Of a stretch of DNA of 64,000 nucleotides, positions 26,621 through 57,681 are shown in pieces (the stretch's first letter is position 1; the number at the start of each line of letters is the position of its first letter). The stretch is from Callorhinchus milii. Its lineage: Eukaryota. The translations under genes and the position numbers were made by a program. Where the stretch lies: assembly GCF_018977255.1 (NCBI RefSeq), contig NW_024704743.1, forward strand, positions 15,874,001 through 15,938,000. Reading direction: 5' to 3'. The notes beneath the pieces are model-generated. The model saw only the letters and a program-made list of their open reading frames with translations. It was not told where the DNA came from and made no database searches.

Positions 26621-27764
26621 TTAATTAGTTTAATGAATAGGCTCCATTAGCAGGATGCTAAAGTTAACCATTAGTGCGGGTTGCACTGAATTCAGGGCAG
26701 AGAATATCTCTAAGTTTACTTCTTAATATACAGCATACGGACATAAAATATATTTGTAAGCTTGATGGAGTAAAACACCTAATGTGAGCCAAAGGGAGAT
26801 TCTCATAACTGGAGCAGCCTGCCAAGTTAGAGTGTTAGATTTATGACTGAGGTACCAGAGTTTATTCTCCTTTTTGTTGGTAGATTTATTGGCCTTAGTG
26901 GATGAGCGCATCTGATTCTCCATTAAGCAGTCCTGCTCCCAGACTGACCCAATCCACTGCTGCTCTAGATTCACAGCTCACAAATAACTGCTCACAGCTA
27001 GCCAATAACTGCTCACAGCTAGCCAGCTCTTTCCTTCAGGGAGGCCTCTGACTTCCCGGTGAGTTTAGTAATGAGACTCCCACAAAACAGCTAAAATAAA
27101 TCTGGTGCAAAACTTGTTGGGTTATATACTATGGTGGTGAAGGTGGAATCATCTATTTCAATAGCCATTGTTGATTTATTTTGAATATGGGGAAGTGGTG
27201 CTAACCTCCCATTCCTTCTCCCTCAAACTCTGATATCACTGTCCTGCTATATTATTCTCTGCATGAGCACCTGCAGGGTCACCGCCAAAGAAAATGGCAT
27301 CAAACAATTGTTTCAAACCTTTTCCAACCATTGGCACCAAGCCACTTTCTCCAGCAATTCCGCATTCCACAGCTGGATGCATACATGTTCTTCCTTTCAT
27401 ACGACTCATCTTTGAGGCAGACATGAAAATCTCATTATTGCAGGTAATTTAGCCGACGAGCCCCCTGATGTTAACATGAGCAAAACAGCACTTCTCTCAA
27501 CCACCCTTTAGCAATGCCAAGAGGCACATGCAATTTCAATGTTACTTCAGCCAAGTTTGCCCGGCTTTCTGTCCGGTTTTAACAGCAAGAGGAATGTCAG
27601 GCCCCATAGTGCAGAAATATTTTCATCCTGCATTTATTTCTATCACTGTAGGCTATTAAGTGCAGCCTAAAGCTGTTTTCAATAAATAAAGATGAACAGC
27701 TAAAAGCAGATTTTTCTATAATCCTTTCTAATCTAAACAAATCATGCAGCAACACATCATGACA

Positions 27765-28900
27765 TTTTGTCCATCACCTCGTCCTCTTTGACCTCTCTGC
27801 TGCCTTTGATACAGTTGATTATTCTATCCTCCTCCAACACCTCTCCACTCACGTCAACCTTCTTGGTTCTGTCCTTCAGTAATTCAGATCCTATCTTTCA
27901 CGCACTCCCCATGTTGACTCCACAAATGGCTTCTCCTCCAGCCCCCGCACTGTCTCATGCGGCGTTCCTCAGGAGACTGTCCTTGGTCCTCTTCTCTTCA
28001 ACATGTACGTGCTCCCTCTTGGTAACATCATCCGCAGAAATGGGGTCAACTTCCACATGTATGAGGATGACACCCAACTCTAACTCTCGGCCTCCACTCT
28101 CAACTCCAGGACCACTGCTGTGCTGACAGAATGTCTGTCAGACATCAAGTCCTGGATGAGAGCTAACTTTCTATCGTTGAAAATCAACAAGACCGAGGTC
28201 CTCCTGATTGGCTCCCGTCAGTGCCTCCACACCTTAGGCACTGACAGCATTTATGGATGCACACTCCACCTCACTGAACCAGTCTGGAACATTGGCGTCT
28301 TGTTTGACCCTCAACTCTCCTTTCTACCCGACATCCATGCCACGACCCGCTCTGCCTTCCCCAAACTCCGCAACATCCGTCACTGCTGAAACCCTCATCC
28401 TCGCATTCATATCATCGAGGCTCGATTATGCCAACTCGCTGCTTGTCGGTGTTCTCAACTCTTCCCTCCACAAGCTGCAGATCACCCCCACCCTCGCCCA
28501 GCTCCACTGGCTCCCCATTCCCCCAGAGGATAGCATTCAAAATCTTTGTCCTCACCTTCAAGGCCCTCCATAGCCGTGCTCCTTCCTACCTCCGCTCCCT
28601 CCACTCAGCAAGCTGCTGCTTGTTCCGTGTCACCTGCCTGGCCCGCCCCACCTTCGGCGGTTAGGCCTTCAACCTCTCTGACCCCACTCTTTGGAACTCC
28701 ATGCCCCAATCCCTTCGCCTTACTCCCTCCCTTGCCTCCTTCAAGACACCTCTCAAAACTTTCCTCTTCAACCAAGCCTTTGGCCAGCCTCCTACCCTCC
28801 CTCCCTGATCCCAATCCCCTGCTCGGTTTCAAATCTCTGACTGTCCAGTGCCTTGGGACATCCTCCTGACGTGAAAGTCACTATACAAATGTAATTTTGT
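27765..28900 (+). mobile_element. 5'-truncated, decayed L2 LINE
   Basis: DLSAAFDTVD, GVPQ and DDTQL motifs, LSDIKSWMRANFL.L.INKTEVLLIG; same 3' tail as 780-1920. Confidence 0.92.
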
Positions 28901-32262: not shown

Positions 32263-33605
32263 TTCTCTCAGTACCCTGACCAACAGTCCCCCAGATTAAA
32301 ACAAATATTCACATGGGACATTACTGTGCGCAAACTAGCTGATGTTTTCAAATATGCAGTTACTAAATTTACAGATTATAAATGTCAACCTGAAATCTAA
32401 ACAAGTCAGACAGTTAAAAATATTGTTGCACATTTCTAAAACTACAAGAGTTTGGAGCTGCAAAAACAAAGTTGGGAACAAAACCTCTGTGGGGCAGCTG
32501 TTTCACATTATTTAATTGAGAATGTAAATATTCCTTCTGATGCCTGGTTATTGAAACCTTTCCCACAGAATGTTTCTCTCTTCTCCGCCTCCCCCACCCT
32601 CCACTCCCAAACTCCTGCATAGCTTTTCAATAACACCTGCCCACTGCAAGAATGGCAGCCAAGATTCAAGCAACCGAAGCCTTGTTAGCTAATTTACAAG
32701 TTTAAAAAAAACATGCAGATACACCGTGGCAAGCTGGAATTTCTGGCTAAGTGTAATTACAATGACGGTAATGCAAGAAATGCATATGGAGTGCCAGAAA
32801 ATGCCAGTAATGCCTTTGCTGCCATTTTCGTTTCGCCCACAAAATACTCAGTCAATTCACAGTATATTCTATGAAGTGCTTTGAGACATCTCTACGATAA
32901 GACACTGTATCAAATGCAAGGATTATTATTATTATCTGCCATTGCACATGTATTTCTACCATTGTGTACAAAAACGTAGTTACTTACCCACACGGACACT
33001 GGATGTTAGACATAGGATGATGAGATGGGAAGCTACGGAGATGATGTCAGCTGCTCAGAGTAGCGTTAGCACGTTCTAGGAGAATTGGGCTGACAGGAGG
33101 CTACGAGCAGGCCAGGGGGTTCACTGTATTCATTTTCAGCATTGAACACTATCTCACCATGTTCCACTGCATATCTAGGGATAAAGGTGCGTATGTGCTC
33201 CACCTGATTGAATATGACAAGTCATGATAGGGAAGCTAGCAATAATTCACTTGTACTGGTTGGCGAGATAGTAATGAAAGGCATAAATTTAAGATAATCT
33301 ACAAAAGAATTAAAGGGGAGGTTAGAAGAAAATGTCTTCACACAGAGTACGGTTACAAGGTGGAATTTTTTGCCATGAACCGGATTGAAGCAGAGTGCAT
33401 CGATTCTTTTAAAAGATGATTTAAGATCAGTGGCTGTCACGTTAACCTTGTGAATCAGACCTTTTTCCTTTAACACCATTGCTTCAAGGGCTTCTGTCAT
33501 CTCTTGGCTTGGTGCAAAGAATGGTCACCCAGGAACCTAACATGTGGAGATCTCCTGTAAGTGGCTACAGTCCATCTACTGAAAACTGGAAAGAAAATCT
33601 GCAAC

Positions 33606-34450
33606 TCTAAAGCACGGTTGAAGAGGAAGGTTTTTAGGTGGGCCTTGAGAAAGGGGAGAGAGGGTGCAAGGCGGAGGGATTGAGGGAGAGTGTTCAAGAG
33701 TTTTGGGGTGTAGCAGCTCAATGTGCGATGTCTGACGGTGGGGCGGAGGGTGTGAGGGACGAGCAGGAAGCTGGTGCCAGTTGAGCGGTGGCACCGGGTG
33801 GTGGATTGGGGAGTGAGCAGGTCAGAAAGGTAGGAAGGTGCCAGAGAGAGAAGGGATTTGAACACAATGTGAGGGTATTAAACAAGCTGATAGAACATTG
33901 GCGGACCTGGAGTTGGTACTGGAGGAGACAAAAAGATTTGTGTGTCATCCGCGTTCATGTGGAAGTCTGCGGATGACATCGCCCAGAGGGAGCATAAGGA
34001 AAAATGGAGACCTGGGGCACCCCGCAGGTGACCGGGCGGGGGTGGGAAGAGAAACCATTTGCTGAGATGAAATGGAGGCGGATGCTTAAGTAGTACTCGA
34101 ACCATGCGAGTGCAGTGCCACTAACGTGGATGAGAAAGGAGAGGCGGTGGAGGAGGATGGCATGGCAAACTGTGTCGAACGCGGCAGAGAGATCCAGGAG
34201 GACGAGGAGGCAGAGGAAGCCCTGGTCACAGATAGAGAGGACGTTGTTTCTGATTTTGACAAGCGCTGTCTCTGTGCTGTGGGCAGTTCCAAAACCAAGC
34301 TGCAGGGGCTCGAGGAGGGAGATGTGTGATCGAATGTGACCTGCAACAATGTGTTCCAGGACTTTGGCAAGGAAGGCTAGGTTGGAAATGGGACGGTAGG
34401 GTGAGAGATTAGAGGGATTGAGGGTGGTTTTTTCGAGGAGGGGTGTAATA
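33606..34450 (-). mobile_element. Decayed L2 LINE with internal deletions
   Basis: Minus-strand HSTETAL..., LLDLSAAFDTV and ADDTQI motifs; 3' region similar to 1500-1780. Confidence 0.88.
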
Positions 34451-37400
34451 ATAGCTAGTGTCTAGATTCCTAGTGTCCTGGCCATCAATCCTCCAGATAA
34501 AATTGTTCATTCATTTCATGGCTGTTTGTGGACATTGCTGTTTACAAATTGGCTGCTGCCTTCCCCTATAAAATACACAGACACTCCACTTCACAGTACA
34601 TCTTATGAAGCACTTTGAGACTGTCTCCTGACATGTAAGATACTACATCAATTGCAGGATTTATTATTATGAATTAAGCTCCTAAATTCTTTATTAAAAA
34701 AACATAGAGCTAAAATAGACGACTGTGACATTTTTAAACTAATATGACTATTTTATTTTCCCATTTATATGATTTTGTTTTCCCATTTGTATGATTAGTT
34801 GAGGTACAGATTAGCTATGATCTAATTAAATTGCGAAACAGGCTCGAAGGGCTGAATGGCCTCCTCCTGTTCCTATGTTCCTATTTCTTGACATAAAACT
34901 GCCAAATTAGTCCAATGTTTTGAGAACTTAATAGCACATCATCAAGAAACTGAACTGAAAGTAATAAACATAATCCTTGCATTTGATAAATTGGACTAAT
35001 TTGGCAGTTTTATGCCGAGAAATAGGAACATAGGAACAGGAGGAGGCCATTCAGCCCTTCGAGCCTGTTTCACAATTTAATTAGATCATGGCTAATCTGT
35101 ACCTCAACTATCCTGTCATCAAAATATCTCAAAGACATTGTATTTGTAGGCAAACGGAGCAGCCAATTTGCGCACAACAATTTCCCACACGCAGCCATCA
35201 AGCTTTTCGAATAGTGCCATGAGATCTTAACTCATATGTATTTCACTAAGGACCTTCAACTGACCAAGAGCAAAAGGATTTTCATCTGAGCTATCTGGAC
35301 TGGATTCAAACCCAGATACAGATGTGTAAGGAGAGTGCTTCAACATTACTATACCATTGATTACCATTCTCTTGCAAAATTACAGATGTATAATATGTAA
35401 CTTTTGAACAAATATTAATATACAAGCAGATGAGAGCAAAGAAAAAAAAGGTTTACTTTTAAAAAAAACATCCTGTTTCTTTAATCAAATTTTCAATAAT
35501 CTGGAAATAATTGAGCAAATGTTTGCCAGACAAAATCGGAACAGCAGAACAGACCACTGAATAAAAGCAGCCTTCGATTAAAGAAATCAAACGAAAATTG
35601 GAAACTTTCACATGCTCTTATAACTCAGGGCACAGAAGCTAATCCTAACACAACTTAAACCTTCATAATATCTGACACTTTTTTCCGGTATGTGTTCTTT
35701 TCATTTCCCCCTCTCCTAACAACCACTCCATCCTCATTTGGGAAGGGAAACAGCCCAACAACAACTTGCATTTATGTAGCGCCTGTCACAAAGGATTACA
35801 TTCTCAAAGCATTTTACAAAGACAGAGTGGGAGTCTGAGCTACTTGCAGGAGGGGATTTGGGGTAGGATGGAAGTGACTGAAGGCTCAGTCATGGTTAGG
35901 TTTAGTAAAGGTTTTGAAAGCGGAGAGGGCGGGGAATTTCGGAGAGAGTTCCAGAGAACAAAGGCTAAGTGGCTGAAAGCTTGTGCATTAACAGAGGGAG
36001 CAGGGAAGAGGAACAGGACTGAGTTAGAATGAGTGTGTGGGGAAGGAGGACCACAGGAGATCACAGTGGGAAGGTGGAGCAAGAGTGTGGAGGGATTTAA
36101 AAGTTAGAAAAATACACATTATAACATATCACCTCAGATGATTGTAATTTGGTTGATGAGATTGTTGAACTCACTGGCCGCACCTATGGTTGAAGGAGAA
36201 GGTACTTAAGAGGAATCATGAGGGAGAAGGGCATGATACATTCAAATGTCCCCTTGGTCAAATCCAAATCCCTGACTGTCCAGCACCTTGGGACATCCTC
36301 CTGATGTGAAAGGCGCTATACAAATATAATTTTATATTGTATTAGTCTCACCCATCCTACCTTTGTCACCTCCTTCCCCCCATCATCTACCTCCACTCCC
36401 ACCCCTAGCTCAGGTACTGAACCAGCATTTTCGTGCACCTCGAGATGTCTTCCTGATGTGAAAGCTGCTATATGAAAGTAAACTGTATTGAGCAAGCATA
36501 ACACTTTTATGCCAAATTATAACCACCAAAACTTTTGGACTCTATCCCCAAAAGCCCAAAAGTAATATGGACTTTTCATAATAATTTAAGAAAGAACATA
36601 CATTTAGCATATAATTACTTTGGACTGGGCTCAAATCACTTTGCAAATAATTATCAAGTTTGTTTTGAAAAATATCAATGATTTTGCCTTCTTTTTTCAA
36701 ATAGTGTCATGCCCGCAAGAAAACAGGCAGACAGGACCTTGGTTTAATGTCTTATGTGAAAGACAGCACTTGTGGCAATGCAGCGTTCAACCTGGAATGT
36801 GAGCTCATCTCAATATCACTTACAAACCTCATAAAAAAACTACAACCTTCTAACCCAGAGGTGAGAGTGCACCCAACTGAGCCAAACTGATGCACTGGCC
36901 AAGCCTATGTAATATTCACAGGCTTGACTTGAGATATTTGGAAGTTAATGTAATACCATGGTTAACATTCCATAGAGGCACCAACCACCTCCTTTCACAA
37001 ACCAATGATTAACGATACAGCATTCCCCAGGTCTACATAAATCACATATTATTGGAATAAGCTTTTGTCATGGTAAAACGCACGAGGCAGATTTTGTTTT
37101 CAATTTCCACAACAAAAATCCATCTGCATAACCTCTCTGACCACAACTCGAGAGATTCTGACTCAGAAATCAATAAAGACCACCTGAACTTAGTCCAACA
37201 GACAGTTAGTTCATCACAGACACGTTTCTCTCTGTATTGTCACACTAAAGAATTAGTCATGTTAAAAAGTATGTACAAACCTCAAACAAAAATAGGTACT
37301 GCTAGTACAAGAACATTAATTATGGATTGAAGGTAGCCTCCAGGAGGGGAAAACAGAGATCTTAGGGCGAGAAGTGACAGATCAGGAAGAGAGGCATTGG

Positions 37401-38559
37401 CTCAGAGAGAGAAAGCACACATCTATGTCAGGGTAATGAAGAATGACAAGCAAATGGGGTTCGTTGCAAACTGCAGATGTGGAAGTTTGAATGTAGCAAT
37501 AAATTTACCGTTTATGAGTTGTGTTCTTTTTATTCACATTGATGTTATAATAATGATTTAAGGTTGGGACTAAATTGTCTGTTAATTCATGCAGGAGTTA
37601 GACCATTCGTTCTTTTAGTACAACCATCCAATTTCTCAAAGATTTCTTCGACATATCAATCTCATAATTTAACCTTGACTTATCTGGGTCCTCATTGAAA
37701 CCCTTTATGCAGTAATTCTTTGTTCCATCACCTGCAGAGGTAGTTTTTCCACATGCCAATCATCCTTTTACTAAAAAACAACCTGCCTGGACTTATCGGT
37801 AATTTAATAACATACAAAACTACAGGTATGATTCATGTTTTTTTTGACGGAAGGAGATAATCCAGGTCTTTTCCAGAGTGAAGGTGGATCAAAATACTGA
37901 AAGATGTTAGATGGGATAACCCAGAAGAATACTTTCAAATATGCCAAGGCAGCAGGACACGAGGGTACAGACTTAGGGTTGCCCAGGGCAATTTTAAGAC
38001 AGACACCAAGTATTTATTTACAATGAAGGTAGTCAACAGTTGGGACTGGCTAACAGGAAGGATGGCTGATTCCTGGACACTGGACTAATTTAAGAAATTG
38101 CTTGATGTGATGATAGGAGGGTAGGTATTCTGGATAGATGATATCAATTGGGTAGAAAAGCATTCTTCATCCAAACCTCTTTTGCGGTCTTGTGAATTTG
38201 ACATCCGCAGAAAGGCAAAACAAGGCTGCCGTTACAATGGTTGGTTGATTCTTGTGTTAGTGAATATTACTATTGTAAATCATCCTGCTGTGAGCAAAGA
38301 TATATTTTGCCAGTAAACACATGAAATGGTAGTTTTGAGCAGATTCAGTAGATATATCCGCCGTAAAGCAAGAACACTAGATTTCAGTACTTTCTAAGAA
38401 AACATAGATTAGGTAAGTAATCAGCATTCATTTTAAAAAAAACTTTTAAATAAGATGGTTAATTCAAACAAATATTTTCTTTTGCACTATGTTGTTTAAA
38501 TACAGCAGGAATATAATGCATCACTTTCACAGGTGGCTAAAAGAAAATGAAGAACTAAC

Positions 38560-38662
38560 CTGAGGTTCGGAGAACACTTGCTCCATGGTGTTTATGGGAC
38601 CACATGGTACGCCGTTACCTTCAAACAGCTGGAGCCAATCTCCTATTGTCTTCTCTACAAAT
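38560..38662 (-). CDS. SUGCT: SUGCT internal coding exon (103 nt, phase 2/0; equivalent to human exon 12)
   Basis: ctcttttatgcttag|ATTTGTA...CCTCAG|gttagt completes the split AG|A Arg codon and gives FVEKTIGDWLQLFEGNGVPCGPINTMEQVFSEPQ, containing the family III CoA-transferase GVP.GPIN motif. Confidence 0.96.
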
Positions 38663-39159
38663 CTAAGCATAAAAGAGTTCTGTGGTTTACACATGATGGT
38701 CTGATGTTAAAAATGCACAGCAGCACATCATTTAATTTGCAGTAGCCACAATAAAACAAGATACACATTTCTTTGCAAAGCAGAGTTCTGCCCTCGGGCT
38801 TTTAGACATCATAGTCTCCAGACCCGATGTTTCCGTGCCTTGAACACAACCCACATTTACAAAGTCAGCAAAACTTTTTTTCATCTGCGATGGTTGTTGA
38901 TCCAATGATACAAATTCACATTCAGTTATAAACAGTACTTTTTAAAAACTGAGGCAGAAGATGTAAAAGTCTTATTAAATTATTTAACAAAGATTAAGTG
39001 GTTCCAAAACTCTGTATAAGGAGGATGTGTATGTGAACAAAAATACTGCATATCATTACTATAAATTACTGATCTAAAGAAAGTTATCATCAATTTTAAT
39101 TTGCAATAATTGCCCTTAGGATAAGATAAATGCATTTATTTGTTTTAAATCTTAATACT

Positions 39160-40850
39160 ACCTCCCGGTATTCAGTACAGAGAACCGGTTTGCGAGTGCC
39201 ACACTCTCAGGGGATTTCTGCACTGCCTGTTTCCTCTTCCTACCATCCTAGGTGGTCACATTTGTGCAAGCAAATGGATGCACAGAGGGACACAGGGAAG
39301 AGTGTCAATGCAATTGTCATTGGGAACCCAATGGTGAAAGGAGTAGAGAAGCTTTTCTACAACCAAAGACATGACTCTCGCATGGTATGTTGCCTCCCTG
39401 GTGCCAGGGTTGAAGACATCACGGAACGGGTGCAAAACATTCTGCAGAGAGAAGGGGGACACTCAGAAGTCATGGTCCGTGTTGGGATCCATGACATAGA
39501 GGAAAAAAGTCCTGAGATCCTACAGGGAGAGTGTCAGAAGCTAGGGAAAAAGCTAAAGAGTAGAACCTCAAAAGTGGTGATCTCTGGATTACTCCCAGTG
39601 CCTCGTGCAAGCGAGTATCAAAATAGTAGGATCAAACACATGAATGCATGGCTGGAGAATTGGTGCAGAAAGGAGGGCTTCAGGTTCCTGGATCAGTGGT
39701 ACCAGTTCAGGGGTAGGTGGGACCTGTGCAAGGTGGATGGTTTACATCTGAACAGGGCTGGCACCAATGTCCTCGCAGGGAGGTTAACTAGTGCTGTGGG
39801 GAAGGGTTTAAACTAATTTTGAAGGGGGAAGGGAATCAGGATGCAGCATTAGAGAGGACAAACAACTTACATAGAGGGTTGGAAGAGACGAATAGCAATA
39901 TAATCAGGAGTAGTCCAGAAAAAGGAGGGATTAGATGGAGGAGAAATGCAGAGCAGACTCAGTCGGTCTTGGAGTGCATGTGCGTAAATGCACAGAGTGT
40001 GACAGATAAGGTTGGTGAGCTGCAGGCTCAAGTTGCCACATGGGGTTATGATATAGTGGCAATAAACGGAGACCTGGCTCAAACAAGGGCAGGAATGGGA
40101 GCTGAATATTCCTGACTACAATATATTCAGGAGGGAAAGGGAAGGAAAAAAAAGGACGGGGGGGGGGGGAGGCAATATTGATTAAAGACACGGTTACGGC
40201 CCTGGAAAGGGACAATGTGCTTGAGAGTCCAAAAACAGAATCTATTGGGTTAGTTAAGGAGCAGAAAAGCAGCTGTTAATCTGTTAAGTGTATACTATAG
40301 ACCATCAAATACTGGGAGGGAGATAGAAGAGCAAATCTGCAAGCAGATTTCAGAAAGATGCAAAACCAATAGAGTAGTGATAATGGGAGCTTCAATTATC
40401 CTAACACAGACTGGCAAAATAACAGTGTGAAGGGCAAGGAGGGGGAAGGGTTCCTGAAATGTGTGCAGGATAACTTTCTGAATCAGTATGTTTCCAGTCA
40501 ACAAGAATTCAGTTCTGGGGAATGAAGTGAAGCAGGTTTTAGTAGGAGAGCATCTGGACAACAGTGATCACAATATCATTAGGTTTAGAGTAATTATGGA
40601 AAGGGACAAGGAACAATCAAAGGTGAAGATATTCAACTGGAAGAGGGCTAATTTTCAATGAGTTAAAAAGGGACCTAGCCAAGGTGGACTGGAAAGAAAG
40701 ATTGTCAGGTAAAACAGCTATTGACCAATGGGAAGCCTTCAAGGAGAGGAGATAGTTTGGGGACAAAACAAATACATTCCCACAAAGGGGAAAGGTAGGG
40801 CATCCAAACCTCCCTGGATGAATAAGTAATTGGGATTAAAATAGATACAG
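39160..40850 (+). mobile_element. CR1 LINE: ORF1 SGNH/esterase domain and ORF2 AP-endonuclease region, RT absent, 5' segment inverted
   Basis: ORF 39130-39816 reads IVIGNP..CCLPGA..VVISGLLPVPRA..DGLHLN (CR1 ORF1 esterase). Then CVNAQS..KVGEL..YDIVAI/ETWL (APE domain) with frameshifts. A separate CR1 3' end follows at about 40880-40952. Confidence 0.92.
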
Positions 40851-41665
40851 TTTGGGACACGACTTGTCAAGGGACTGCCAGGTTGGTGGAAGGTGAACTA
40901 GATGGACCTTGATCTTCTTTCGCCTAACTTATTCTTATGTTCTTATGCTCTTACTGGCAACTTACCCCATATATTTTTATAGATTCAATCACTGATGAAC
41001 ACAAAAAATTAAAGTGTAACATTTCAGGATATTGCCTTTAAGTGTTTCCCACATTCACACTGCCCAAGCTCAAAGAATTCAAAGAAACCAATGAAGCAGT
41101 CCTTCATTATTATATTATACACAGAGATGGACAAAATACACTCACACAACACACCCACACACACTCTCATGGGTCTGTCACATGCAGGGCACTAAATTAG
41201 CATTTATTTTCATTATCTCTTTATAAGGGACGAGTTTTTTTCTGACCTATCTCTTAATCTTTCAACATTTAGTGTGTATACATGTATATATGTTTTAGTA
41301 AGATTTCATTTTTCAAATAAATTTGGTCATTCACTTTATTGCTGTTTATGGGACATTGCAGTATGCATATTGGCTGCTGTGTTTGCCCACAAAGTACACG
41401 CTCACTCCACTTTACAGTATATCCGGTGAAGCGCTTTGAGATTTCTTCCTGATATGAAAAGAGCGATATCAAATGAAATAATTATTATTAATTATTGTTA
41501 TCATTAAGTGGAGGAATTTAAACAATTTGTATTAATCTGTTAGAAGTGATTTAATTGTTGGGACCATTCTGTCCCAACAATTAAAGCTCCACCTATGGAT
41601 GTTTTACATGAATTCAGCTATCCTTTCAATTTGTATGCAATAGCTGGAAAGAAAAGAAAGGCAGT

Positions 41666-41705
41666 ATACATACATACATACATACACACACACACATACA
41701 TACAT
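41666..41705. repeat. (TACA)n/(CA)n microsatellite
   Basis: Seen directly. Confidence 0.9.
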
Positions 41706-44613
41706 GATGTTGTTCTAAAGGCAAGAAGCTGAGTGTACAGTCTCCCAAATCATAGCTAGAGAATAACTGGGAGAGTTGAATTTGCAACAGTATCGAGAGC
41801 TGCTGTTACGTACTTAGATGCTGTACTATCTCATGAAATGCTTAGCCAGATATCTCCACCCCATTTAACAGAATATTATCTGTTCAACTATTCAACTGCA
41901 TTCACTGACCTTAAAGATTAAATAATCTTGCAGAGCAAGCAACTGTTGCAAATAACACTGTTATCCTTTCCCTCATTCTGATAAATCCAGTGACTGTTGA
42001 GCAAGACTGAACAGGATGGTGGAATTTGCATATGAATGTCATGATTGACAATGGGGACTACAAATGAGGAACAACAATATCTGCTCAAAGAAAAATGATT
42101 TGAATTCCATCATCTTTAAGGTGAAAGCAGTTTGGGGAATACTAACAAATTAAGTGGTTGTTAGTATAGTAATATTAAACCATAAGTTTTGGAAAGCTTT
42201 AAAAGTCTCAATTTCGCTAAATATAAACGTGAATTCTGACAGCTAGAAAGTTTTGCACTATGATTTACGAACTGAATTTAGCATGGGGGAATTACCCTCC
42301 GACAAGAACTTCATTCAGTAACAATATAAAAAGAACACTTAATATTTTAGTCCATTACTTAACACTGTGCTGAACAATGTAAGCCAGTAGGCAACAAAGG
42401 AATGAACAGAAGCAAACATACAATGCGTTTCTATAGAGGCAAATTAGAGGAGCATCATGATTTCATTTATTTCCACTCAGAAATTGCAACCCGAGCCTGG
42501 GGCTATACCTACAGTAAATTACAACAAACATTCTGTCCTCATTTTCTAATACTTTATTTTGCATGACCGCAACGCTGCTGAGCTGCTGGAATAATAATGC
42601 AAAGCACACATTTTGTTCTTTAAATTGCCTCAACTGGTTTAAGGCCATTGTAGGATTGTTTCATGAAAAAAATACAAGTTCCTAGTTCGAATTCCATCAT
42701 CCTTAAGGTGAAAGCAGTTTGGGAAAAACTAACAAATAAGTGGTTGTTAGCATAGTAATATTAAACCATAGGTTTTGGAAAGCTTTAAAAGTCTCCATTT
42801 CGCTCAATATAAACATGAATTCTGACAGCTAGAAAATTTTAATTTAATATTAAATAATATTAAGTTTTGGAAAGCTTTAAATGTCTACATTTTGCCAAAT
42901 ATAAACTTGATTTCTGACAGCTAGATGATTTTGCAATATGATTTACAAACTGGATTTCGTGTGGGGAAATTACCCCTCAACAAGAAATTGCTTAATTCGG
43001 AGTCAAACGCGAAGGCAGAATTGCTCTCTGGCTCCACACATTTCTGCTAAGTGCACTCCTCACAGTGCTGAACGCATACCACTGGCAGCTTTCTAGTGTG
43101 TACCAGAAGCACAAGTGCAAAACGTTTGCCTGTTAGCCAGATGATTATGTCCAAGAACCAGAGCTATCTGCTACTTGAACGCACAAGGCTAAATGGGGTG
43201 AATTTCAGCATTTTTTTTAGAATTGAGACAAAGGTACTGGATTAGAATCCATCGGTCTACTATTTGTATTCTCAAAATACTTCAGTATTCGAGAGGGCGT
43301 CTGCACTAGTTTCTCTCAAAGGCCACCCCCCCTCCCGAATACAATCAGCCCTTACATGAGTACGCAGAACCAGGTTAGAGACCCCAGTAAATTGCAGTCT
43401 TCACATTGCAGGTCGTTGCCAGGTATCCATGCCAACCTCAGAATACCAGCTTCCCTGCCTGCCTGCTTGACCTGTCATACCAAAGCCTAGAATGCATCAC
43501 AGTGACCAACGCAGACTCAGCTGAAGGGGAGGCAAACAGAGGTCTAAAGTCCTCACTCCACTGCCCTATTCAGCAAATGCCAACTGGTTCCTGGGATAGT
43601 CCAAACTTTGTTTGGGGACTTTTCCATTTTAAAGTTCTTTTTAATGCAGCCTGATTACCTCCATTCCAACGCCACATCTCCTGCCCCCACTACACACCCC
43701 TGTTCATGTTCACTCGTGAAAGAAGTTCAAACCCAGCAGGACTTTTCCTTCAAAACAGTCAGTGGGGATCTAGTTTTCAGTAGAAACATACACATAAATG
43801 TATACACATGCATAACACATACATGCAGAAACACACACAAATAGACCCTTCTCCCTTGTTTGGCATCCAAACCCGTTATTTTGAAGTACTGTGAGATGTT
43901 GATCTATAGGAAGAGCATTATATAACTGCAAATTGTTTTTGCTGTATAAAAATATACAAATACAAAGACATAAAAATACACAAACAATTGATAGGGATAC
44001 AGCTACTGTTAGTTCTATAAGTAAAGCCACAGTTCCACATGAAATAGACATATAGAAGAGATCCCTGGTCTGTATTGAGTTAGCTCATATCAGACAAGGC
44101 AGCAATTAATAATAATAATCCCAAATGAGTTGGAATGTAGGGGCATATTCCACCCTAATATCTACTCTCAGAAAGGATGACGATTCTCCTGACAGACTAT
44201 GTTCACATCGTTGAGACGTCTCAAAACGCTTTACAGAATATACTGTAAAATGGATTGACTGTGTACTTTGTGGGCAAAACACGGCTGCCATTGGGGTGAG
44301 AGTCTTTGATATCGCTTGGGTGGGGAGGGGGCACGGAGAGGACATCATTTGTCACCCCTGCTGAAATTATATGGGTTCCGTTATTATGCTTCCCCCCCAC
44401 CCACATTGTCACATAGTTTATTGACATGACTGTCTCGGCTCATACATCTAGTAGAGAAAATGTGAAGTAAATTTCTATTAAAAGGACTGAAAATGCGTTC
44501 TGATCATCGACGTTTCTGAAGTAAGTTTCAATTGACGGTAAAAATCTTTCAGAATGGCGTTTGATTAGAATGTCTATTATAACCAGAAACGTATGCACAT
44601 CACTGGCACTAAC

Positions 44614-44711
44614 CTAGCCGACAGGACATCAATAAGTTCTCTTCTGTTCTGAACCCGGAGCTTGTTGGTTTGGTACCTGGGGTCTCCGCTCAGTGCAGGT
44701 AATGACATGAG
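44614..44711 (-). CDS. SUGCT: SUGCT internal coding exon (98 nt, phase 0/2; equivalent to human exon 11)
   Basis: cctctttgctctttttcaag|CTCATG...GCTAG|gttagt translates to LMSLPALSGDPRYQTNKLRVQNRRELIDVLSA(R). In frame with both neighbouring exons and similar to human [33 protein letters not shown] (recalled). Confidence 0.95.
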
Positions 44712-45868
44712 CTTGAAAAAGAGCAAAGAGGAAAGGCCAATGATGTAACAGTCATTTTCAAAACAAATCTCTGTCTGCTATCTGTTAAACCATAGCTCGG
44801 GGCTGTTTTCTATTTTTTTTGAGTGAAGAGCTTGAAGTTACCAGGAAGAGTGATAGAGGATAGGAAACTGGACTCATTTAGGGAAAATTTAAGAGATTGT
44901 AAGAGATATGTTAACTGGCTTGTTAATTTAGTATTAAACTAAGAACATCTTCTACTCACATGGGGCAAAATCCTCCCAAATGAGTTGGAATGTAGGGGCA
45001 TTTTCCACCCCAATATCTACTCTCAGAAAGGATGACAACTCTCCTAACAGACTATGTTCAATTGTATTTTTATAGCATATTCTTATGTCAAAATGTCTCA
45101 TAGCACTTTACAGTTAATTACGATCAAGTGCAGTGACTGTTTCTGTAGGCAACTATGGCACACAATTGTGGCTAGCAAGGCTCCACACGCAGTCATAGGT
45201 GATTGCCAAATTCATCTGGAGGATTGTTGGGAAACTGACTTCTCTTCTCGCAAAGTGTTGTGAGAATACAAATGTCCACCTGATTGGGCACAACGGAACT
45301 TGATTTAATTTGCCATCCAAATGACAATGCAGCAACTGCCCTCCATGACAGCTTAGCTCAAATCCAGCCATGGAACTTTAACCCAAAGGAGTAACTGAAT
45401 GATTCATATAATTTTTCACATCTCCAAAATTACACACTGGACATAAACAAACAGCTAATATGTAAAATACAGGATACCATTTTGGTTGTGTCTTTGGACC
45501 AGAGGTTTTGTGATTAAATCACAGTGGGTTCCCTCAATGTTTCATCTTTTGAAAGTCAATAAAATAAGTACAGGGACATGTGGGGGGGCGCGGGGGCAGA
45601 AGGTAATCTTCTTGCGGGAGGGTGGGTTGGGAGGAGCTGGGTTTGAGGAGAGATGTCTGGCAAAACCAAACAAACAGGTTTCCAGTAATCCAATGCATTG
45701 GTATTGGTTGACTAGCTTCTCTGGATCATCAATGCGAATTAGAGCCGCAGACATTCCTCAACCATACGGTTATTATCCGTATAACCAGCCATATGATTAA
45801 ATAACTAACTCGTAACATTACAAGCTATCTGATATTATGTGTACATTGTTTCACAGAAAGTAGTTCAC

Positions 45869-45940
45869 CTTGCAAATAATTGAAAATTGCTGGTCATTTC
45901 CAGCGCAAATCACAAGGAAGCCGTCCTTTGTCTTGAAAGC
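45869..45940 (-). CDS. SUGCT: SUGCT internal coding exon (72 nt, phase 0/0; equivalent to human exon 10 by recall)
   Basis: Minus strand ccctattttatag|GCTTTCAAG...TGCAAG|gtgaac translates to AFKTKDGFLVICAGNDQQFSIICK, matching the vertebrate SUGCT segment [24 protein letters not shown] (recalled). Confidence 0.95.
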
Positions 45941-54065: not shown

Positions 54066-55598
54066 TATTTAGTAGTGCAATTCCATATTGCTTGTAACTA
54101 AACAACAGTGTACATGTATGTGGTGAATTTCATACTGGGAGGATATCCAAGAGCACCTCACACAGCTGACTGGGAGGGTGGGGGAGGGAGTCCAAGCTGG
54201 TGAGGAGCTGAGGAAAGGGAAAGGTGGTCAAAACGCACTCAAAGCTCTAGAAAGGTTTGATGGTGGGGACAGGAGTCAGAGAACATCTGGGGTGGAGCTC
54301 CAAAGAGTGGGGACAATATGGCTGAAAAACCCACCCATTGATGGTGGGCAGGTTGGACAGGGGTCAATGTGTTTGTTGAATAGAGATTTTCTTTTTCTGA
54401 TGTTATTCAGAGGATCCTAGCCTAAATCAATCTGCATTAAAAAGATCATTTTCAGTTTTCGACTGTGTTCCCATTTATCTGGAATCCAATACAAGATTTG
54501 ACAACACACTTCAACAGCAATCTTTAAAAAATATTGACTCTTATATCATCGATAATAAAATAGCATTTTCTTCAATCTCTGAAAGTAGTGGGCACCATCA
54601 TTCACCATGGCTCACCAACATACACTGAATATAGGATTGTACCTGTCATCAACAGCAAAATGTGATTACAGTGAATACCTCATAAAGTGCAATATACCTT
54701 CAAGAATGACATCATTTCCTCACAGGAAACCTTCAGCGCTCCCAAAAATGTTAAAGAGAGCGATGTACAATGTTAAAAAATAAACAAAACGACACAGATT
54801 GCAGCAAATGAGAGGTACCAGAAGGGTGAATGGATGTAACCTAATTGTGGGACACACATGACATTGATAAACTGTGCTGCATTTTGATTGTTTATGGAAT
54901 CAGCTAAACCTCATGTTTGGGTTACAGGCTTGGAACTCGCTCCAATGCACCCGCGTACTGTGGTCTATTCTATTCTATTTGTTAAGCAGTTCAAAATAAT
55001 AGAGTTTACCATCTTACAGACAATTTTACCTAACGGACTGATGTAATACTTACTGTAATCATTCCCAAATCAAAAGAAATTACGCTTAGATTTCAAATTG
55101 TGCAACCCCAACTGAAAAATGTGAGTGAGAGTACACAGTGTACAGTCTCTCAGTTTTCCATGGGACGTGTGTTTTTAGAAAGGTTACCAGATGTATGCAA
55201 GAACAGATTGAATTATCTGGTTGCAACAGCTGAATATTCTTTTATGAATGAATCAAGTGTTCAAATGTGTATTCGGGAATTTCAGGGGACTCTGCGTGGG
55301 TTAGAAATAACATAAACAAACAGATGTCAGTAATTAAGCAAAGGCCATGCCTGACATTAATGCAGAATCACTACAGAGCTATTTGTGCGCCTGCCATACC
55401 CACAGGAATTCCTAGCACTCAAAGATAAAGCATACTCCCTACTGTGGTATCTTTCCACATCTGCATTTAAACTGTTTAAAATATACTAGAAGCAAAAATG
55501 CGAACTGCATCATTAACATTCTGAACATTTTTTTAATATACAGATTTTACATGTATATTAGAGATTAAATAATTTTCAGAGCTGGCAGGTTTCCAAAG

Positions 55599-55911
55599 TA
55601 ATAATAATAATAATAATCCTTGCATTTGGTATAGAGCTTTTCACGTCGGGAGGACGTCCCAAAGCGCTTCACAGAACACACTGTAAAGTGAATTGACTGT
55701 ATATTTGTGGGCGAACGCGGCAGCCAATTGCGCACAGCAATGTCCCACAAACAGTCGTATATTGAAAATGACCAATTTATTATTGTTTTTTGTTTTGGAG
55801 GGATTATTATTAGGCGTGTGGAGTAAGGAAACTTGCCCAAGGTTTCGCCCTGCCTGGGATTGAACTCAGGTCTCTCGCTTGCAAAGCGAGTGCTCTAACC
55901 ACTGAGCTACA
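55599..55911 (-). mobile_element. Young full-length SINE, short subfamily
   Basis: Near-identical reverse complement of 60102-60420. Confidence 0.92.
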
Positions 55912-56115
55912 AGCACTTTATACATTTTACTTTTGATGGGGATTAATATTGATTTGCCAATCATGTCACTTTATTTTCATAAATAATGATCTGCTAATAT
56001 GCTAAAATATTTAATTTTGCCATTGAAACTGAGCATAGACAACTGACACAACTGTTTTTGTACTTTAAATACCCACCCTTTCTACAAAACAAACAACTCC
56101 ACTCAGCAAAATATT

Positions 56116-56248
56116 CTGACGAAGGGTCGTGGACTCGAAACGTTGACTCACTTTCCTTCCTCCATAGATGCTGCCTGACCTGCTGAGTGTTCCCAGCAAC
56201 TTCTGGTTTTGTTTCAGATTTCCAGCATCTACAGTATTTTGCGTTTTG
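56116..56248 (+). mobile_element. Short Penelope-like terminal-repeat-derived insert with minimal hammerhead motif
   Basis: CTGACGA-A-GGGTC-gtg-GACTC-GAAA-CGTT core, flanked by the direct repeat aaaatattctg (56108-56118 and 56249-56259). Confidence 0.7.
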
Positions 56249-57438
56249 AAAATATTCTGGGTATTTGGAGATGGACAAATTATCAATGAAGGAGCATTGG
56301 GTACTGCAATGGGTTAATGGGAAACCTAACCTTGGATCTCACAGAATTGCAAAGTCTTCAGAGTGAAGAAACTGTCCAGCATGGTATCAAATCACACCAT
56401 AAGGTTCAAGCACCGTGTCCTTTTTAGGCTGGCAGATACAGGTCCCAGAGTCCTCTGTGTTTTTCCATCAGATTACACAACTCTTAAGCCTCTGAGTTTT
56501 GTTTCAATATCATGCCTCCAAATCCAAGCCGTTCGATCTCTGCAATGACTGAAGTGTGTTTGAATTCATTAGGTTTGTGGTTGAAAGTCTCAACCAGATT
56601 GAAGATTTCCTGGCAATCTGTACCATAGAAGAGCTCTGCTTGATTTGCCAAACACTGTGCCTCATGCGTGCCCAGAAATTGAGTGTCTATCCCTGCAGTA
56701 AGAAGAACAATGTCCTTTTCCTTTTGAAGCTCAGGGTAAAATACAATGGCTGTACGTCAGGTAGCTTTTGCTCTTTGCTCCATTAAAAGTCCAAAATTAG
56801 AAGTTAAAATTGAGCATCCATTTCATGGTTGTTGTGAGACACTGTGTACAAATTGTTTGCTGTGTTGACATACAAGTACAATCACTACACTATACAGAAG
56901 ATCCTGTGAAGTGCTTTGAGACGTTTCAATGACATGACAAGGAGCAATATCAAATGCAAGGATCATCATACTGCATTGTCACGAGTCTCAATGCTGATGT
57001 CAATTTTAAAAATGATCTTTCACAACAGTGGAAAGAGTCCTGTCTATGATTTGACCATCATTCGTACTTCAGTACAACTAATGGAAAAAGCATTGTATGT
57101 TAAAGAGTATGCATTATAAAATATTCTGGGTGACCTGGGGTTCACAATAACAATATTACAAAACAAAAGACATAATATCATTCAACTGAGGTTTAAAAGA
57201 TACATGAAGCTCTTTCCTGTCAAGATGCTTATTTGACACTTGATAATATGCAAGTTTTATCCAGATAAGCAAAACATGCTTTGGAATCTGAATTGGGTTC
57301 AGGAAAAATAGCCTCTAGCTCCAGGTGAATTACAAGCCTGTCTGGCATGAATATTCCTAATGCAGTGCTATAAGGCAACCTATATAATTAAAACTACTGA
57401 CATTATCCTGATGGCAGTCCCCAATAAAATAAATAATC

Positions 57439-57681
57439 TAATGATCCTTGCATTTCATATAGCTTTGGACTTCTCAAAGGGCTTCACAGAATATACTGTA
57501 AGTGAATTGACTGTATATTTTGTGGCCGGAATTCAGGAGCCAATTGCGCACAGCAGTGTCCCACAAACAGTCGTGGATTTGCGTGACCAATTTATTATTA
57601 TTATTTTTTTTGGAAGCAATTATTACCCCTGGAAAACCAATCCACCAATCGACTGACAACCAGGTTCCTACTCACTGCTGG
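57439..57681 (-). mobile_element. 5'-truncated SINE, long subfamily
   Basis: Reverse-complement match to roughly 190-440. Confidence 0.85.

Follow-up and report, generated by a model that had tools for sequence, protein, structure and literature searches.

A likely truncated Penelope-like element end bearing a minimal hammerhead motif, probably carried into a SUGCT intron by an ATPAF1 retrocopy

Introduction

Minimal hammerhead ribozymes (min-HHRs) in truncated ends of Penelope-like elements (PLEs) have been known since 2014. In the original description, the metazoan motifs pair 4-5 bp in helix I, have one additional base between positions 9 and 10.1 and a palindromic 15.2-16.2 segment, and are reported to be inactive when single and only weakly active when dimeric (Cervera and De la Pena, 2014; PMC4209133). 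Most of them occur alone in truncated copies, or else in pairs on opposite strands. PLE insertions more generally display 5' truncation, inverted partners, short target-site duplications (TSDs) and microhomology (PMC8557442; PMC3846280; PMC11167929, each in excerpt), with TSDs of 8-10 bp accompanied by 5' microhomology in the relevant section of PMC3846280. For a PLE of the anole, the available text reports that reverse transcription begins 111-118 nt into an ORF which starts at the hammerhead, that the template RNA is uncleaved and that the targets are AT-rich (PMC11167929). Cartilaginous fish are not among the hosts named in the accessible text of PMC4209133 and two of its three supplementary files, and our literature search for Penelope hammerhead ribozymes in Callorhinchus or sharks found none.

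Here we analyse one such motif in a stretch of 64,000 nt from Callorhinchus milii, referred to throughout as the window. An initial annotation had proposed that a non-autonomous, ribozyme-bearing retroelement monomer was inserted here with a target duplication. We conclude instead, with a probability of roughly 0.85, that the insert is a PLE stub with a broken min-HHR which first entered the 3' UTR of ATPAF1 and was then moved within a retrocopy of that gene. The insert is real and ordinary, familiar debris apart from one minor complication.

Results

The features discussed below are collected in Table 1. On re-reading the sequence, all coordinates previously given for the core, the extra A, the stem, GAAA, ACGT and the two 11-mers proved correct. 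The conserved core CUGANGA...GAAA...UH is present, and helix II is closed by G10.1-C11.1 and comprises 5 bp, one of them a G-U pair. A56123 is unpaired between positions 9 and 10.1, and ACGT at 56140-43 forms the palindromic 15.2-16.2 segment without a loop 3. The predicted cut falls after U56144, giving the cut triplet GUU; the H of the hammerhead UH may be U. Pairing in helix I is found at only two of the first six positions. These features fit the PLE kind of minimal type I hammerhead, as had been suggested: like the metazoan motifs in the available part of PMC4209133, this one combines an intact core, an extra base after A9, G10.1-C11.1 and the lack of loop 3. It differs from the Schistosoma families described there, whose helix II has 7-8 bp.

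Table 1. Positions of features in the window (+, forward strand; -, reverse strand)
Feature	Position	Strand	Basis or remark
Left TSD copy, 11 bp	56108..56118	+	final 5 nt (56114-18) shared with the repeat family
Right TSD copy, 11 bp	56249..56259	+	exact direct repeat
Repeat-family stub	56114..56248	+	contig pile-up, loose ends at both borders
Hammerhead core	56116..56144	+	CUGACGA, extra A, 5-bp helix II, GAAA, self-complementary ACGU; pattern scan and literature features
CTGACGA	56116-22	+
Extra A	56123	+
GGGTC	56124-28	+
Loop GTG		+
GACTC	56132-36	+
GAAA	56137-40	+
C-G-T-T	56141-44	+	follows GAAA
Helix I 3' arm, GACT	56145..56148	+	pairs with family AGTT (4 bp); 2 bp in the window copy
ATPAF1 processed copy, 5'-truncated	55932..56740	-	Pfam ATP11, protein identity, contig ends and alleles
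Full-length tRNA-headed SINE	55600..55918	-	tRNA match 55854-909; 97% to a copy near 60.2 kb
Three SUGCT exons (residues 267-358)	38557..45940	-	Pfam CoA-transferase and protein match

Using a self-made min-HHR pattern (CTGANGA, an optional extra base, a stem of at least 4 bp, GAAA, a complementary pair, TH), we found that the motif at 56116 is the sole match on both strands of the 64-kb window; no match occurred in any of 150 sequences of the same length simulated with a third-order Markov model. An Rfam scan of 55000-57500 at up to E=10 returned no hammerhead family. Pattern scans for other copies gave 0 and 11 loci in viral contigs, 14 in metagenomes and 0 in prokaryote genomes; all 25 of these loci were dismissed as chance, their resemblance being limited to the 17-24 nt pattern itself.

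The family to which the insert belongs was followed in contigs from 4 of 24 listed public runs, compared with 55915-56865 at a likeness of at least 80%. X1 and X4 (organism A) behave as DNA, X8 (organism A) is a guessed RNA run and X16 is from organism B. Matching contigs numbered 10,944, 11,967, 3,857 and 23,279, respectively, with nearly all depth on 56114-56248. Summed contig depth in X1 was ~6e5 on the insert and ~11 on the flanks, and although this depth is not a copy number, the family is very abundant in both species. Its borders are marked by loose ends: in X1, 308 contigs leave upstream of 56114 and 292 downstream of 56248, and the numbers in the other three runs are similar. The consensus of the loose ends behind 56247-48 is featureless and AT-rich, the flanks being unrelated to one another. 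Upstream, the loose-end consensus finishes in CAG in all four runs (agreement among loose ends is low, 0.38-0.59), and therefore the family continues 5' of 56114, with AGTT preceding the core.

By this loose-end consensus the family has a helix I of 4 bp (AGTT/GACT). Among the variants listed, position 56135 carries C rather than T in 96-99% of depth, restoring helix II to GGGTC/GACCC, so that the G-U pair is private to the window copy, and a second family consensus, AGGTC/GACCT, represents a two-sided change in the same helix. A family consensus lacking the core or helix I had been named as grounds for rejecting the hammerhead; in the contigs of the four runs, the family pairs 4 bp in helix I and shows covariation in helix II. 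The repaired helix I and the compensatory changes between subfamilies are again like those of the PLE motifs in PMC4209133, and so is the make-up of the family, in which truncated copies mostly stand alone or are paired on opposite strands. All 15 joints listed (83 further ones exist) are strand inversions, 6 of them starting from 56114; the inverted partners belong to other family copies and the window copy has none. Partial repeats adjoin each other in a few contig joint rows. Within the 64-kb window we found neither a second copy nor a tandem array of the insert.

The insert is bracketed by the exact 11-mer AAAATATTCTG, the two copies lying 141 nt apart. Taken alone, such a repeat is weak evidence: a third copy of AAAATATTCTG is present at 57118, and exact 11-mer pairs 100-200 nt apart are not rare in the window (n=22, grouped in 5 loci). 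What identifies it as a TSD is its position at the two borders of the family, together with the empty site seen in another species. In organism B, a contig of depth 26.5 joins 56095 to 56262 through 33 letters in which one diverged copy of the target stands in place of the insert, this empty site being one contig of one run (X16). The empty-site check proposed with the initial annotation thus came out in favour of a target duplication. Organisms A and B are 12% apart over the analysed stretch, and the empty site in organism B makes the insertion younger than their split. The TSD is 82% AT (9 of 11 bases). Microhomology at the 5' junction is present as had been claimed, at a length of 5 nt (TTCTG, 56114-18) and not 3; since family and target have these letters in common, microhomology produced a 5' junction that falls within the first part of the core and replaced the outer two pairs of helix I.

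The window copy is predicted to be inactive as a ribozyme, as first supposed. Compared with the 4-5 bp helix I of described min-HHRs, it has 2 bp where the family, by its loose-end consensus, has 4. In the predicted fold of 56108-56160 the best structure (-10.8 kcal/mol) is a different hairpin and the pair probability of helix II is 0.002; the fold z-score of the plus strand is only -1.1. The window also holds no partner for a dimer. The motif lies on the strand opposite both ATPAF1 and SUGCT, therefore neither transcript contains the ribozyme; its antisense orientation to SUGCT, noted at the outset, is borne out by the three minus-strand exons.

Two observations concern sequence just downstream of the core. 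A splice-acceptor-like tract (CTCAC, pyrimidines, TAG; 56146-56170, plus strand) lies directly 5' of an ATG at 56168; it closely follows the ribozyme cut site, and the family 3' end is 81 nt further on. Tract and ATG are reminiscent of PLE pseudo-LTRs with their intron and start of the ORF. The ORF of the anole element begins at helix II (PMC11167929), whereas the nearest ATG of the window copy is the one behind the acceptor-like tract.

The surroundings of the insert turned out to be a processed copy of ATPAF1. A Pfam scan covering 300 of the window's 458 frames between stop codons (at least 50 aa) placed an ATP11 domain at 56487-56756 (minus strand), in a frame 95% identical to residues 233-319 of Callorhinchus milii ATPAF1, and no further ATPAF1 exons occur in the window. 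The copy comprises ~84 C-terminal codons, still open, the stop codon at 56484-86 and then 3' UTR; the insert lies ~225 nt past this stop and before an AATAAA near 55975. The window and one X1 contig (record 7) are continuous across 56673, the Leu/Gly codon boundary at which contigs break in X4 and X8, so the retrocopy lacks a parent intron at 56673/56672. An X1 contig carrying the 56692 allele stops 21 letters away, at 56671, an end that is likely to mark the same exon junction.

Contigs with other alleles than the window indicate that the parent gene already carries the stub. In X8, one contig (55932-56158) crosses the left insert junction by 40 letters and another (56213-56673) crosses the right junction by 36 letters, both with non-window alleles, one of which (K at 56591) agrees with the C. 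milii protein; these parent-gene junctions lie on two separate contigs, neither spanning the whole insert. A third X8 contig (56643-56740) crosses the exon junction and has E at 56692, as in the C. milii protein; such a spliced contig fits the guess that X8 is an RNA run. X8 does not cover 56747-78, which X1 and X4 cover through a junction contig. In X1, X4 and X8 the contig that runs from 55932 into the insert continues in the other direction for 536-541 letters unlike the window, and matching in organism B likewise begins at 55932. The retrocopy is ~1.6% diverged from the parent contigs. These observations make a strong, though indirect, case that parent ATPAF1 is interrupted by an intron at the Leu/Gly boundary and bears the stub within its 3' UTR, and that the window holds a spliced, 5'-truncated copy. 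The initial annotation placed the insertion at the window locus, and on this point it does not stand: by the contigs with parent alleles, the insert was already part of the parent 3' UTR.

Some smaller observations bear on the history of the two ATPAF1 sequences. The contig at the 5' junction of the retrocopy (region 56710-56865) has half the depth in X1 (5.7 versus 11.2) and full depth in X4 (11.5 versus 11.3); the half depth may reflect heterozygosity, and we saw no empty allele. Organism B has two ATPAF1 3' versions over 56323-56741, at depths of 26.5 and 15.5, which may be alleles or reflect a separate retrocopy and which temper the reading of the empty site. At 56591 the retrocopy has Glu and the C. 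milii parent Lys, and Glu is also found in organism B and in two shark proteins; judged from these residues, the change may have occurred in the parent, later than the copying event.

The retrocopy would itself lie in an intron of SUGCT. Of the three exons in the window, two have CoA-transferase Pfam matches and agree with the Callorhinchus milii protein, one at 36 of 36 residues and the other at 24 of 25; with the upstream exons outside the window, the insert would fall within the intron that precedes these three.

Discussion

The anatomy of the insert and its family suggests that it is likely the 5'-truncated 3' end, part of the pseudo-LTR, of a PLE. As expected of PLEs that encode an endonuclease (EN+), there is a fixed 3' end shortly behind the hammerhead with family sequence extending 5', and a short TSD at an AT-rich target with 5' microhomology (11 bp and 5 nt). 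The available descriptions of Poseidon of Anolis (PMC11167929), Penelope of Adineta (PMC3846280) and other EN+ elements (PMC8557442) similarly have a 3' end ~100-130 nt past the hammerhead, an uncleaved template, AT-rich targets, short TSDs and 5' microhomology, and also inverted 5' partners, which here occur in other family copies. Family membership in the PLEs is assigned on this anatomy. No GIY-YIG Pfam match was found in 300 of the 458 window frames of at least 50 aa, and searches from the frame that opens at ATG 56168 (MLPD) found no reverse transcriptase or GIY-YIG ORF linked to the family; with queries of 30-49 aa, a weak test, this frame gave no match among longer proteins and no usable atlas match. 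One match in a 1.84-billion library was rejected as an unrelated tandem-repeat protein.

The reading as a PLE stub has to be weighed against the monomer first proposed, that is, an independent non-autonomous unit (a non-LTR retrozyme or SINE-like monomer) which is self-cleaved, possibly as a circular RNA, and served in trans by PLE proteins. The insert does resemble the non-LTR retrozymes of PMC7229834 and 10.64898/2026.07.22.740005, in the parts available, in being short and non-coding, with a type I hammerhead and kinship to PLE pseudo-LTRs. Its family is very abundant in two species, partial repeats do adjoin in those few joint rows, and both retrozyme monomers and retrozymes derived from PLEs have been described in vertebrates including one chondrichthyan (10.64898/2026.07.22.740005). 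However, a cleaved monomer should start downstream of 56144 and have the core as its last part, whereas the insert reads through the cut site and carries the core at its 5' border, and the family continues beyond that border while its flanks behind 56248 are unrelated. None of the 15 listed joints is head-to-tail, and the window has a single copy and no array. Retrozymes, by contrast, occur as tandem repeats whose type I hammerheads are for the most part canonical (PMC7229834), with at least two complete hammerheads, unlike the solitary, truncated copy with a minimal and broken motif seen here. With the family extending 5' and a fixed 3' point, a 5'-truncated PLE end fits better than a monomer in the retrozyme sense, which we regard as quite improbable. 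That motif and direct repeat arose by chance is hardly credible: the silence of Rfam, the 11-mer repeats at such spacing at 4 other window loci and the unremarkable plus-strand z-score would allow it, but none of the 150 simulations yields the motif, and the idea is refuted by the helix repair and covariation in the family, the borders that match the repeat and the empty site.

Accepting a PLE stub, it might still have been inserted directly into the ATPAF1 retrocopy at the window locus, the parent gene having none. The TSD is intact in the window, and an assembler can merge contigs of two similar loci. Against this, the contig at the left junction runs on beyond 55932 into its 536-541 foreign letters in three runs, the right-junction contig of X8 bears parent-type alleles and that of X4 stands at twice the single-locus depth (23.8 versus 11.3-11.5); moreover, a joint in organism A that skips the insert is not among the rows listed. 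Direct insertion at this locus is accordingly very improbable, and it is likely that the insert first landed in ATPAF1 and that the retrocopy then carried the stub into the SUGCT intron.

On the preferred reading, in which a PLE stub entered ATPAF1 before the gene was copied, events may be reconstructed as follows. By analogy with PLE biology, the PLE endonuclease would have nicked an AT-rich site in the ATPAF1 3' UTR, and the reverse transcriptase would have started at the family 3' point, 104 nt past the cut site, copying ~135 nt of uncleaved RNA before the other target strand was joined through the shared TTCTG. Of this step, the sequence itself shows the borders, the duplication of 11 bp and the microhomology, and the second species shows the empty site. 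Truncation would have deleted the outer half (two pairs) of the helix I 5' arm, leaving the sequence observed and the inactivity predicted. Subsequently, in the order we favour, a spliced ATPAF1 mRNA bearing the stub would have been reverse-transcribed and landed, 5'-truncated, in the SUGCT intron. The mechanism of the initial annotation was therefore mostly right for the original insertion; the contigs speak against its monomer and its insertion site.

The retrocopy is unlikely to have been moved by PLE machinery, a candidate that we rejected on the grounds that the copy derives from a spliced mRNA in which the stub is antisense and internal. It resembles LINE-made processed pseudogenes, as covered in the accessible part of a review (PMC3747384), in being the intron-less, 5'-truncated 3' end of an mRNA with its UTR, and differs from them in having no clean poly(A) tail or TSD and a full-length, young SINE 13-14 nt after its 3' end. 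Behind the 3' end there are 14 A-rich nt and then the SINE, on the same strand. No TSD was found around the retrocopy, or around retrocopy and SINE together, and the parent ATPAF1 contigs have no SINE at the matching point. A literature search for ATPAF1 retrocopies found none. It is conceivable, though doubtful, that ATPAF1 copy and SINE form one chimera, a LINE enzyme, whose usual template is restricted to its own 3' tail, having begun on SINE RNA and switched to ATPAF1 mRNA. The shared strand, the spacing and the similar apparent ages (1.6% from the parent; 97% between SINE copies) speak for this; the missing shared TSD and the parent contigs without the SINE speak against it, and an independent SINE insertion into the A-rich tail explains the arrangement equally well. 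Were the chimera true, a PLE hammerhead stub would have moved to a new locus without Penelope protein, in a three-element relay (PLE stub in an mRNA, SINE tail, LINE machinery) along a processed-pseudogene route that needs no poly(A)-reading L1.

The locus offers a clean worked case, with an empty site in a relative and a 5' junction inside the ribozyme core, and with a nested order that runs from the species split through the entry of the PLE stub into the ATPAF1 UTR to the ATPAF1 retrocopy. It also illustrates that a perfect TSD around an insert need not mean that the insertion happened at the present locus. As for ATPAF1, its 3' UTR appears to be expressed with the antisense stub included, and the stub could at most be a putative target there of small RNAs against the family.

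Other retroelement remains are scattered through the window. A 228-aa open frame at 39130-39816 (plus strand) has SGNH/GDSL-like esterase and OSK matches, and we take it to be the likely remnant of a LINE ORF1. Decayed LINE reverse-transcriptase fragments with RVT_1 matches occur at 758-1838, 27737-28866 and 33500-34461.
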